Origin: Acidobacteriota bacterium
GTDB lineage: Bacteria; Acidobacteriota; Blastocatellia; RBC074
Direction of reading: 5' to 3'
NCBI GenBank assembly: GCA_031401095.1
Contig: JANNRD010000455.1
Location: forward strand, 1 to 33,548
Length of the DNA: 33,548 bases
Shown: positions 19,939 to 31,190 of the stretch, in pieces
How positions within the stretch are numbered: the stretch's first letter is position 1
Layout: the number at the start of each line of letters is the position of its first letter
Position numbers and translations under genes: made by a program
The notes under the pieces: model-generated
Databases searched by the model: none
Told to the model about the DNA's origin: nothing
Seen by the model: only the letters and a program-made list of their open reading frames with translations

Positions 19939-20013
19939 TCCTCAGTAGCTCAATGGTAGAGCACCCGGCTGATAACAGGGGGGTTGTAGGTTCGAGTCCT
20001 ACCTGAGGAGCCA
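19939..20013 (+). tRNA. tRNA with an Asn-type body (U1-A72, G73, encoded CCA) but anticodon GAT, with a G30-A40 mismatch in the anticodon stem
   Basis: Manual cloverleaf: TCCTCAG/TA/GCTC-AATGGTA-GAGC/A/CCCGG-CTGATAA-CAGGG/GGGTT/GTAGG-TTCGAGT-CCTAC/CTGAGGA/G/CCA. Acceptor and T arm resemble E. coli tRNA-Asn (TCCTCTG...TTCGAGTCC...CAGAGGAGCCA). Confidence 0.85.
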
Positions 20014-20090
20014 TTTCTTTTCAATCAGTTAGCAAACTCACCTCTCCTCGACTGAACAAATGAGCATCCGGTTAGAGAAGACACCTGAGC
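20014..20090 (+). repeat. R arm (element left end) directly following the full tRNA (attL-like junction)
   Basis: TTTCTTTTCAATCAGTTAGCAAACTCACCTCTCCTCGACTGAACAAATGAGCATCCGGTTAGA matches the R arms at 21093, 25282, 26310 and 27638 with a few differences. Confidence 0.75.
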
Positions 20091-20093
20091 AGC

Positions 20094-20444
20094 CTACATA
20101 GGAATCGGGCAGATGATGTTGACCCATTCGTCGGCTTCGGTCGTTGTCCAAATCAGGACCAACTCCTCGATCGCCGTATCCAGATCGGTCTTCTGAGAAA
20201 GTATCAAGACACCAGGGCTGTTTCGCCTCGTGATGAACTTCGCGAAATGTAGAGGCATCGTCCGCCGATCATGCGTGACGAGGATGCGGTTTTCCTGAGC
20301 TGCCAATTCAAGCACTTCATCATCAGGGAGACCCATGAGGCCGGCCGCATGCCCAGTTTGAAAGTCGATTCGGGGCTCGCGCCGGACGACACCGGCGATG
20401 ATGTCCTGATTGAAATCGTAGTCACCCTGGAAGCGGATTGTCAT
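20094..20444 (-). CDS. DUF5615-family PIN-like putative toxin
   Basis: 116 aa. MTIRF..D.D........V.RREPRIDFQT...AGL.GLPDDEVLELAAQENRILVTHDRRTM..HF is the typical DUF5615 pattern. Abuts the DUF433 gene. Confidence 0.75.
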   Translation of the reverse strand: MTIRFQGDYDFNQDIIAGVVRREPRIDFQTGHAAGLMGLPDDEVLELAAQENRILVTHDRRTMPLHFAKFITRRNSPGVLILSQKTDLDTAIEELVLIWTTTEADEWVNIICPIPM

Positions 20445-20753
20445 TCAGTCGGCCAGCGTTTTGTTCTTCGCCGCTTCGAGCTTACGGTAAAGGAGGGGAT
20501 AGGCCTCGCGAGCCTGCTTCCGCAGTTCCTCAAAGTCAGCCTCACCCTGTGCAAGGTAGGCGTCGACCTCTTCACGGTGCGAAAGGTAAAAGGTGATCGC
20601 GCCGTAAACCTGTTCGAGGTTTAGCAGAGGAAACGATTGGGCGATTGACTCAGGCGAAGCGCCGCGCAGAAAGGCGTAGACGAGGGAATCCAGAGAAATG
20701 CGGGTGCCGGTGATCCAGTACCCACCATCACGCTGTTCGACATACTGGCTCAT
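20445..20753 (-). CDS. DUF433-family putative antitoxin
   Basis: 102 aa. ITGTRISLDSLVYAFLRGASPESIAQSFP.L.LEQVYGAITFYL is the DUF433 core. Confidence 0.8.
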   Translation of the reverse strand: MSQYVEQRDGGYWITGTRISLDSLVYAFLRGASPESIAQSFPLLNLEQVYGAITFYLSHREEVDAYLAQGEADFEELRKQAREAYPLLYRKLEAAKNKTLAD

Positions 20754-20940
20754 TGCTTAGTCTCCTTAGCGACGCCAGTATATCATTCGCTTCTCATTTC
20801 GCTCCACTAGAACACTTTTTCCGGACGCGGTCGCGCAGACGACGTGACTGCGCAAGCTATCTCCCCACCCTATGTCATCTGTCATCGATCCCACCGACAA
20901 CTCCCGAGGCTGGCTTATCACCTCTCGCCCCTTCAGTAGG

Positions 20941-21204
20941 ACACTGAACAATTACTGAACAATTTTGCGCCGAATACCCTGTAAAACCGTGTATCCAACC
21001 CAACCAACAAGCACGTAGAGCCAACAAGATAGCAAACCTGCATTAGTCTGTTAACCGGGGGGTTGTAGGTTCGAGTCCTACCTGAGGAGCCATTCTTTTC
21101 AATGAGTTAGCAAACTCACCTCTCCTCGACTGAACAAATGAGCATCCGGTTAAACAAGACGGATGAGACGAGCACGGCTCAATTGTAGACACCCAATGAT
21201 TGCC
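20941..21204 (+). repeat. attP-like junction unit 1 (L arm, 45-nt tRNA 3' core, R arm)
   Basis: L arm 20941-21047 with tandem ACTGAACAATT x2. Core 21048-21092 (CTGTTAACCGGGGGGTTGTAGGTTCGAGTCCTACCTGAGGAGCCA). R arm 21093-21204. Confidence 0.8.
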
Positions 21205-30447: not shown

Positions 30448-30707
30448 GCATGATTCTCCATTGCCGAGTGAGCCTGCAATCCATCACCGTTCCGCGATGC
30501 TCAAGGCGGCAGTCGAATGCGGTATCCTGAACCTCATTGGCGCGGGAAGCCCAGAACTACGCGAGATGGTTCAGCTCTAGCTTCTCCGCCGTCCTTCGGC
30601 GACTCGCGCACCTGGCAAACGATTGCAAACCGCGTTCGCATTAATTCGGGGCTTTGAAGAGAGTGACGTAGCCCCGGATTATTTGATCGACACGGTAGTC
30701 GTATTCC

Positions 30708-30840
30708 GGGCTCGCGCCGGATGACACCGGCGATGATGTCCTGACTGAAATCGTGGTCAACCCTTGAAGCGGATCGTCATTTAGTCGGCCAGCGTTCTGT
30801 TCCTCGCCGCTTCGAGCTTATGGCGCCGCCAGTATATCAT
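30708..30840 (-). pseudogene. Deleted remnant of a DUF433/DUF5615 module
   Basis: 30708-30820 aligns to 20371-20483 (frameshifted toxin N-terminus MTIRFKG* and antitoxin last codons). It then jumps to the sequence homologous to 20768 onward, an internal deletion of about 285 bp. Confidence 0.65.
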
Positions 30841-30993
30841 TCGCTTCTCATTTCGCTCCACGAGCAATTTTTGGACGCGGTCGCGCAGACGACGTCACTA
30901 CGCGAGCTATCTCCCGACACCTTACGCCAGTGGTGATCGATCCCACCGCCAATGGCCCGGGGTTGGTTTACCACCTCTCGCCCTCCAGTAGGC

Positions 30994-31144
30994 CACGGAA
31001 CAACTACTGAACAATTGTGCGCCGAATACCCTGGAAAACGACATATCCAACCCAACCAAGAAGCACGTAGAGCCAACAAGATAGCAAACCTGCATTAGTC
31101 TGTTAACCGGGGGCTTGTAGGTTCGAGTCCTACCTGAGGAGCCA
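30994..31144 (+). repeat. Terminal attR-like unit (L arm plus core, no R arm)
   Basis: L arm 30994-31099. Core 31100-31144 with one substitution in the variable loop. Followed by unique sequence and a terminator rather than an R arm. Confidence 0.8.
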
Positions 31145-31155
31145 ACTTGGACGAA

Positions 31156-31190
31156 GGTCGCTGGAGTTAGCTCCTGCGGCCTTTTCGTTT
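31156..31190 (+). terminator. Rho-independent terminator, probably the native tRNA terminator
   Basis: GGTCGCTGGAG-TTAG-CTCCTGCGGCC forms an 11-bp stem with one mismatch and one G-U pair, followed by TTTTCGTTT. Confidence 0.65.

Follow-up and report, generated by a model that had tools for sequence, protein, structure and literature searches.

Positions 19939-31190 of a soil Acidobacteriota contig of 33,548 nucleotides (JANNRD010000455.1), which was analyzed over its whole length and is called the window below, hold an unusual array of recombination sites. Its structure and evolutionary history can be described with high confidence: a composite islet adjoins the 3' end of a tRNA-Asn gene and consists of six non-autonomous mini-elements of ~1 to 3.5 kb bounded by attachment (att) sites, that is, of miniature cis-mobilizable elements (CIMEs). 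The segments, numbered here as cassettes 1 to 6 from the tRNA outwards, all hold type II toxin-antitoxin (TA) genes or their remnants (Pfam, NCBIfam). The sites between them derive from one attP that had lost its integrase gene.

The only tRNA gene in the window is located at 19939-20013 on the plus strand (ARAGORN) and matches the Rfam tRNA model at 64.3 bits. Its 3' 45 nucleotides (19969-20013), from the first anticodon-loop base to CCA, constitute the att core, and a repeat search of the window finds copies of this core starting at 21048, 25237, 26265, 27593 and 31100, which are 93-100% identical to one another. In all units the block of identity between attP and attB runs from C32 of the anticodon loop (CTGTTAA) to CCA. 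Among the islands that tyrosine integrases insert into tRNA genes, an anticodon-loop sublocation class was reportedly set apart by Williams in 2002 on the basis of an identity that begins in the anticodon loop and reaches the tRNA 3' end. The window units carry exactly such an identity block; the second mark of the class, an integrase gene adjoining the tRNA-proximal att site, is absent from the window and present in its relatives.

The automatic call labels the anchoring tRNA as Ile-GAT, with the anticodon at 19971-19973. The full gene reads CTGATAACAGGG, giving GAT, and a C-to-A change (A at 19978) breaks the 30:40 pair of the anticodon stem. All five displaced copies read CTGTTAACCGGG, which gives GTT and leaves the anticodon stem intact. 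The orthologous gene of the metagenome-assembled genome (MAG) CAVUOF010000009 (locus L004, 1001-1075), which has three differences from the window gene, is a tRNA-Asn(GTT) whose stem is likewise intact. Because the five partial copies and the orthologous gene all read GTT, the anchoring gene, which aligns with its orthologue along an Asn-type body, is best regarded as a tRNA-Asn by descent and not as a tRNA-Ile. Either the GAT variant is an assembly error, or the gene is an inactivated or retargeted tRNA-Asn whose altered sequence the most recently integrated unit may have delivered with its core.

The core copies lie in the same orientation as the tRNA gene and are embedded in two conserved arms. 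An R (P') arm at 20015-20088 follows the tRNA, so that the junction is of the attL type (B-O-P'); this arm has a single CTGAACAAAT motif and is 97-98% identical to the R arms of units 1 and 4. Units 1 to 4 are attP-like (P-O-P'). Unit 1 (20940-21166) comprises an L arm (20940-21047), the core (21048-21092) and an R arm (21093-21166), with similarity to the R arms of units 3 and 4 continuing to ~21215. Unit 2 (25129-25343) comprises an L arm (25129-25236), the core (25237-25281) and a short R arm (25282-25343). Unit 3 (26157-26383) is built of an L arm (26157-26264), the core (26265-26309) and an R arm (26310-26383) that extends to ~26435, and unit 4 (27485-27711) of an L arm (27485-27592), the core (27593-27637) and an R arm (27638-27711) that extends to ~27760. 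Unit 5 (30992-31144) is an attR-type junction (P-O-B') with an L arm (30992-31099) and a core (31100-31144) and no R arm; its 3' flank is unique DNA, only 45% identical to the R arms. The R arms present after the tRNA and the four internal core copies are 87-98% identical over their first 62 nt, with further similarity to ~+125 in units 1, 3 and 4. Each of the five copies is preceded by an L arm of ~108 nt, 82-93% identical between units. The distal chromosomal flank (B') starts with a hairpin and U-tract at 31149-31190 on the plus strand (dG -23.4 kcal/mol, z = -2.3), presumed to be the native terminator of the tRNA. The stem is compound, and a simple terminator scan did not flag it. The original prediction had placed one tRNA, five 45-nt copies and a short remnant at these positions, in an attL, attP-like and attR topology, and had taken the arms for tRNA-linked att sites and not for dispersed repeats; coordinates and topology are all borne out, and a check for dispersal found every L or R arm in the four arrays and 29 metagenomic loci considered below to be attached to a tRNA-Asn core.

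The arms share a short motif, CTGAACAAWT (CTGAACAAT), which has 12 matches in the window, all of them inside arms, against 0.1 expected, so that chance can be dismissed. Repeats of the form (C/G)TGAACAAT occur twice in the L arm and once in the R arm, where the integrase family described next has its tandem arm-type motif. The CTGAACAAT motifs are therefore likely to be arm-type integrase-binding sites, as far as the sequence allows a prediction.

A degenerate pattern made of the 3' end of the core and the adjoining 18 nt of R arm led to 29 metagenomic loci. In 22 of them the same tRNA-Asn core and R-arm start are adjoined by a convergent tyrosine integrase gene or a remnant of one, whose stop codon is the TCA at +7 to +9 after CCA. 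The full-length integrases of this family have 411-415 residues and the Pfam domains Phage_integrase, Phage_int_SAM_3, Phage_int_M and Int_N, and in L017 a gene with an HTH_17 domain (AlpA/Xis-type) lies directly upstream of int. The first ~100 residues of the related integrases have no Pfam match. The P4-type arm-binding domain (DUF4102/Arm-DNA-bind_3) is absent from them, every NCBIfam match is far below its cut-off, and identity to any phage integrase is at most 30%. A P4-type integrase, as suggested earlier, is thus not what the relatives demonstrably encode.

The integrase 3' end contains a tandem GTGAACAATnGTGAACAATTC, which encodes ELFTIVHK (L017:1794-1860). Comparison of the R arms of L011, L009, L027 and L033 reveals subfamilies with other tandem pairs, namely CTGGCCAAT twice, encoding ELARIGQK, and CTGCACAAT twice. 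Since the motif lies inside the last codons of the integrase and covaries with the subfamily, the specificity of the predicted binding sites would be physically coupled to the C-terminal peptide of the enzyme. L arms homologous to those of the window are found at L008 and L023, two junctions linked to an integrase, and at the distal end of a complete element of 6.6 kb in L022. Common to these L arms are a tandem motif ~100 nt upstream of the core and the blocks CCGAAYACCC.GTAA and CACGAAGAA.CAACAAGAT. The full-length elements of the family are thus ordered as core, R (P') arm overlapping the 3' end of the convergent int gene, HTH_17 (xis), cargo, L (P) arm and core. The window cassettes are miniature versions of this order. 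By the same comparison, the window units are genuine homologues of the attP of an integrase-encoding family.

In all window R arms the minus strand reads PDAHLFSRGEVSLLTH between two stops, and the units of L004 and of a fourth array, L039, encode the same peptide with minor substitutions. This peptide matches the ...LF[TS]...LTH-stop C-terminus of the L017/L028 integrase subfamily, in which the integrases end in ...ELFTIVHK...ELTH-stop, except that one motif repeat is lost and an in-frame stop is present. The R arm is accordingly a vestige of the last 16 integrase codons, cut at the same point in all units, both here and in three other assemblies. Where integrase genes have decayed independently in other loci, the remnants have 146, ~122, 66, ~55 and 53 residues. 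The identical truncation of all units, as opposed to the varied lengths elsewhere, implies common descent from one integrase-less attP, and it argues against six independent integrations followed by decay. Many different cargos have since come to be bracketed by this single integrase-deleted attP.

No recombinase was found in the window. Pfam and NCBIfam searches of the plausible window open reading frames (ORFs) give no integrase, resolvase, transposase or excisionase domain, and neither the ORFs nor six-frame searches contain an HTH_17 or transfer domain. A replication module (primase, helicase, polymerase) with its own integrase is likewise absent from the window. Comparison of the window with the related integrases by blastx yields nothing beyond the 16-codon vestige, and a hidden Markov model (HMM) of the integrase family and a phmmer search with HTH_17 return nothing from all six window frames (best E = 0.49). 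Stretches outside genes and arms are at most ~550 nt long. These searches agree with the earlier statement that the window encodes no recombinase or excisionase. As there is none in the array or the window, any recombinase must act in trans, as had also been proposed; the trans-acting family integrase itself is hypothetical, and mobility at the present time would depend on it.

The same family of units recurs in four sequences that were assembled separately: the window, one further metagenomic contig and two MAGs. A 20-mer across the L-arm/core junction was scanned over the GTDB genome set and matched two other Acidobacteriota MAGs, only within arrays of the same kind, and one Thermoplasmata archaeon contig (L002), which has no blastn similarity to any part of a unit. 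In the 364-kb MAG contig both matches of the 20-mer lie in the array, and there is none elsewhere in that MAG. The window has five units and an attL; MAG CAVUOF010000009 (L004 and L003, at the contig end) has two units and the tRNA; MAG JBDTUW010000867 (L001) has two units; and ENA contig ERZ25039520 (L039), located by a protein search with a pseudo-ORF, has four. No integrase is in view in any of them. Shared cassettes are 87-92% identical, and their arrangement differs: HicA is followed by a truncated PIN gene in the MAG, and PIN is followed by HicAB in the window. The HicAB cassette of L039 contains an extra 2.1 kb (DoxX, ArsR-type helix-turn-helix (HTH), AHSA1), and a molybdopterin oxidoreductase fusion is additional cargo of the same contig. 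Three of the four L039 L arms are preceded by ends of HicAB cassettes: a full one, an internally deleted one and an 85-nt remnant. The divergent unit uA of L001, with an L arm of only 65-72% identity, keeps the motif in both arms. Arrays of this kind thus evolve as cassettes are duplicated or deleted, cargo is gained and sequence is exchanged by homologous recombination, and the sequences are compatible with site-specific exchange as well.

These observations make it probable that the region is a miniature CIME array which arose from one integrase-deleted attP and was recombined in trans by an integrase of the family. The integrase and its recombination directionality factor (RDF) would be supplied from another place in the genome or by a full-length element entering it, and would recombine any two cores, with the crossover in the anticodon-loop region. 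Single cassettes would be excised as circles with one L-core-R site and might re-enter at the tRNA or at any core already in place. The directly repeated units, which form repeats of 220-260 bp, would in addition exchange sequence by a RecA-dependent route and reshape the array in this way. The TA cargo might serve as an addiction module that counter-selects the loss of cassettes through recombination of direct repeats, which would explain why TA modules survive in such an array. That a trans-acting family integrase mobilizes the units today is plausible, if a little short of probable.

Several points weigh against integrase-driven recombination. Neither a circular cassette junction nor an empty site was observed, and the family integrase was not found in the window or in the ~40 kb of such arrays, a figure that covers arrays only. 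The R arms vary in length from 62 to more than 125 nt and some cassettes are decaying (the pseudogenes of DUF433/DUF5615, the orphan XRE gene), so that a slowly eroding structure fits as well as an active one. One L039 unit, E_ub, is a mosaic in which the L arm is 96.5% identical to that of unit 1 and the 58 nt upstream correspond to the end of cassette 3; this demonstrates homologous exchange, which could alone explain reordering and duplication. The L arms cluster neither by linked cargo nor by genome. Different cargo between identical arms is a feature that no model accounts for.

The same evidence may be read without any integrase. One integrase-deleted CIME, left at the tRNA, would have grown into an array and been reshuffled only through unequal crossing-over and gene conversion that depend on RecA and through illegitimate gain and loss of cargo between the direct repeats, the att sites now being functionless relics. 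Besides the mosaic unit and the L arms that do not cluster with their cargo, this explanation draws on the triplicated HicAB-linked L arms of L039 with their nested deletions, on the second remnant of cassette 1 at 30703-30983, on the lack of an integrase in any of the four arrays and on repeats that are long and similar enough (82-98%) for homologous recombination. However, the L arm of every unit begins a few nucleotides from the first CTGAACAAT, behind at least four unrelated cargos, and unequal crossing-over alone explains duplications and deletions but not the arrival of unrelated cargo. Furthermore, the motif and the two blocks are conserved among units and integrase-linked arms that have diverged by 30-35%, which suggests selection on predicted protein-binding sites and not the drift of neutral relics. 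A history without an integrase is rather unlikely.

It is much harder to maintain that six full-length, integrase-bearing elements integrated one after the other and decayed separately, a history which is disfavored and very improbable. Such events do occur, tandem integration and decay being common at tRNA-Asn: 12 of the 26 informative metagenomic junctions are internal and not tRNA-proximal, graded integrase remnants are present in other loci, and L005 has a hybrid junction. In L005:1391-1640 an L arm with the CTGGCCAAT motif pair is combined with an R arm and integrase of the GTGAACAAT type, a tandem junction of two element subfamilies at the same tRNA. Against this stand the five R arms of the window and those of L004 and L039, whose vestiges end at the same nucleotide with the same in-frame stop and have no further integrase sequence behind them (blastx, HMM), where independent decay gives varied lengths. 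Repeated integration as the origin of the array, proposed from the sequence of att junctions, thus holds with regard to their topology, but the shared 16-codon truncation shows that it was not simply six independent integrations. The idea of a repeat-induced misassembly, or of a family of repetitive extragenic palindromic (REP) or miniature inverted-repeat transposable element (MITE) type that holds a tRNA fragment by chance, is scarcely credible: short-read Logan contigs do break at the units (L040 is exactly one cassette) and at an intron fragment (L034), which marks the region as hard to assemble, but the units differ by 2-18% and hence are not collapsed copies, the same architecture is present in four independent assemblies, and the 20-mer matches only these arrays besides L002, with every arm attached to a core.

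The preferred reading, a CIME array recombined in trans, places the window next to several known systems. CIMEs are defined as elements that retain att sites and have lost integration and transfer genes, as in the ICESt1-related elements of Streptococcus thermophilus (definition quoted in PMC5704250), and the ssrA locus of Dehalococcoides holds tandem stacks of genomic islands that include members without integration modules (PMC3146451). By that definition the cassettes, judged by their att sites and missing genes, would be CIMEs: they are flanked by att sites of an integrase-encoding family, lack genes for integration, excision and transfer, are stacked behind the 3' end of a gene for a small RNA and would depend on the recombinase of a related element. 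Unlike CIMEs and the Dehalococcoides islands, which are at least 10 kb long, the window units are ~1 kb in size, stand five or six in a row and carry almost only TA genes. They also share one integrase vestige, as copies of one non-autonomous attP and not as separately decayed integrative and conjugative (ICE) or integrative and mobilizable (IME) elements. Finally, no functional partner element is present in the four arrays, and the fragments of parent elements show no conjugation or mobilization genes.

The array also resembles chromosomal integrons. Clusters of attC sites without an integron integrase are said to have been named CALINs by Cury and coworkers in 2016. As in integrons and CALINs, small cassettes are arranged linearly, each ends in a recombination site, and none has its own recombinase; as in sedentary chromosomal integrons, TA cassettes are frequent and their order and content vary between relatives. 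The sites, however, are attP sites of the double-stranded type, with arms and a tRNA core, and not folded attC hairpins. IntI, attI and Pc are lacking, the array starts from a tRNA gene, and its cassettes contain complete operons of either orientation. Against the integrase_gron model, whose cut-off is 265, the family integrases reach 20-38 bits.

Tandem tycheposons separated by partial tRNA copies, along with degenerate remnants without clear boundaries, have been described at Prochlorococcus tRNAs (bioRxiv 10.1101/2020.12.28.424599). There too, repeated integration at a tRNA displaces older elements distally, and the islands hold remnants and fragmented integrases. Tycheposons have their own integrase and replication module and are 10-20 kb long, whereas the window elements are uniformly integrase-less and have sharp boundaries made of complete attP sites. 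The pdif (dif) modules of Acinetobacter are small, often TA-encoding and recombinase-less, change places between replicons and presumably owe their movement to an enzyme in trans (for example PMC13141974 and PMC6449649). They are comparable to the window cassettes as small TA-rich modules bounded by recombination sites and lacking a recombinase; they differ in having 28-bp XerC/XerD sites of alternating orientation on plasmids in place of directly repeated attP-type sites of ~220 nt at a chromosomal tRNA that are served by a heterologous-type integrase.

Despite its functional resemblance to them, the array lacks every defining feature of integrons, CALINs and dif modules. Its theme, decayed islands stacked at a tRNA, is known; what is unusual is the combination of miniature cassettes of uniform size, a complete attP at each junction, a single non-autonomous ancestor, almost exclusive TA cargo and integrase-less arrays in four assemblies. 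Non-autonomous derivatives of integrase-based elements are far less documented than are MITEs for transposons. If the family integrase moves the units in trans, they would constitute a second, independently evolved cassette-array system alongside integrons and, if this is true, a route by which TA and defense genes circulate in a major, poorly studied soil phylum. One may go further and speculate that Acidobacteriota possess an integron-like cassette system based on different chemistry. Operon cassettes of ~1 kb (TA, defense, accessory), each with a complete tRNA-derived attP, would be excised, reordered, duplicated and exchanged between genomes by a trans-acting tyrosine integrase of heterologous type and an AlpA-like RDF, with tRNA-Asn in the role of attI and TA cassettes stabilizing the array. 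This is an unlikely extension of the data. Even if static, the array provides a clean example of tandem accretion at a tRNA, of TA genes surviving the decay of islands and of predicted arm-type sites embedded in the C-terminal codons of an integrase.

The cargo operons of the cassettes lie in both orientations, and the TA pairs recognized are DUF433/DUF5615, MNT/HepT, ParE with a partner, PIN with a partner and HicB/HicA, the two partners having no HMM match. Cassette 1 (20094-20753, minus strand) encodes the TA-like pair DUF5615 (20094-20444) and DUF433 (20445-20753), both identified by Pfam, and the independent short-read Logan contig L040 matches 20020-20946 at 99.9%. Cassette 2 (21367-23933, plus strand) contains degenerate DUF433/DUF5615-like ORFs (21367-21982), which resemble cassette 1 by eye only and have no HMM match, followed by an MNT nucleotidyltransferase (21986-22270), a HepT RNase (~22270-22599) and an FG-GAP repeat protein (22572-23933) assigned by Pfam. 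Cassette 3 (24381-24825, minus strand) encodes a ParE/RelE-type toxin (24381-24641; Pfam ParE_toxin, E = 6.8e-15) and an overlapping ORF of 63 residues (24634-24825), a putative antitoxin by its position. In cassette 4 (25393-26102, minus strand) a PIN (VapC-like) toxin (25393-25845; Pfam PIN) overlaps a putative antitoxin of 86 residues (25842-26102). The homologues of this PIN protein are named VapC or PIN in Acidobacteriota and Blastocatellia, and those with 68-75% identity occur in ordinary chromosomal contexts without arms. Cassette 5 (26562-27412, plus strand) holds a weakly matching DUF2281/VapB-like ORF (26562-26717), a HicB-like antitoxin (26988-27203) and a HicA toxin (27200-27412), recognized by Pfam and NCBIfam, and recurs in L001, L004 and L039 at 87-92% identity. 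Cassette 6 (27867-30983) comprises an XRE-type HTH gene (27867-28100, plus strand), an FG-GAP_2 protein of 723 residues (28276-30447, minus strand), both found by Pfam, and a truncated second copy of cassette 1 (30703-30983), which the repeat search shows to be ~90% identical to 20368-20930 with ~285 bp deleted. Six to seven tandem 165-nt repeats of 60-74% identity at 28956-30121 correspond to the FG-GAP_2 blades (Pfam E = 5.8e-99).

Two further features of the units were seen. The end of the R arm, ATCCGGTTAGAC (for example 27688-27699), is an inverted repeat of the L-arm/core junction GTCTGTTAACCGG (for example 27590-27603) and coincides exactly with the point at which homology to the integrase gene ends. 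The loss of int by deletion could have left it as a footprint, or it could be an additional core-type site. On the minus strand, the junction of the anticodon loop with the L arm forms a match to a sigma-70-like promoter (TTAACA, 17 nt, TATCTT, extended TG) at 21054-21026 and 31106-31078. This match points into the upstream cassette, and the TA operons of cassettes 1, 3 and 4 are on the minus strand; the match may be due to chance.

Several other functions were considered for the units and rejected. A minus-strand ORF (MQVC...) is present in the L arms of window-type units and absent from integrase-linked L arms, and a search for its homologues was empty. Rfam matches only the tRNA and, outside the array, a group II intron fragment, so the units are no known non-coding RNA. 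Folding of the attC kind is not indicated, with z = +0.75 to +2.07 for the L arm plus core and z = -1.1 to -1.7 for the core plus R arm relative to shuffled sequences. A dispersed REP/MITE family was discarded because all copies of the arms are attached to cores and lie within arrays.

As to the origin of the parent elements, the short fragments at hand show no relaxase, type IV secretion, replication or capsid gene. IMG/VR was scanned twice with DNA patterns and once with the integrase, each time without a match, and a viral origin was set aside on this account. A plasmid origin was set aside likewise, the only matches being those of the tRNA core to tRNA genes of plasmids. In the longer related loci L021, L022, L025 and L018 the ORFs are mostly uninformative or spurious, except for transposases of insertion sequences.

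A short core remnant of 26-31 nt is located at 24241-24271 on the plus strand. Identified by the repeat search, it consists of the 3' half of the T-loop, the acceptor strand, CCA and TTCTTT, and its arms are unrecognizable. Short cores of 21-26 nt, from the T-loop to CCA, recur at L010:3413-3433 and at L025:7311-7331 and 2796-2816; in L025 they belong to repeats, each made of a 66-nt spacer and a short core, that flank an element. This recurrence suggests a second class of att site, or integration into secondary sites, at the same tRNA.

Beyond the array, the 5' fragment of a group II intron occupies 31192-31450 and begins with GTGCG at 31192 directly behind the terminator hairpin. Class C introns typically insert behind terminators. 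The Rfam model group-II-D1D4-3 matches 31276-31450 at 69.6 bits, and neither an ORF for a reverse transcriptase or maturase nor a match to domains D5/D6 is present downstream. The independent Logan contig L034 breaks at 31293, which suggests that the intron is repeated in the genome. Further TA-like genes lie downstream, outside the array, at 31422-31936 and 31934-33413: an ORF of 106 residues with an antitoxin-like LPPNKQQEAL motif and a frameshifted ORF, and after these HipA/HipB (HipBA). The frameshifted ORF looks PIN-like by eye at its N-terminus and was rejected as a VapC/PIN remnant, having no HMM support. The DNA of this flank may come from an older island. Upstream of the tRNA, the window (18600-19938, with cytochrome c peroxidase and SecA genes) is wholly different from L004:1-1000, which contains an ORF of 138 residues resembling Phd/YefM antitoxins by eye only. 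The distal flanks of the window and the related MAG differ as well, despite ~90% identical units and shared cassettes, and the two arrays may thus reside at different tRNA-Asn loci or in rearranged neighborhoods.

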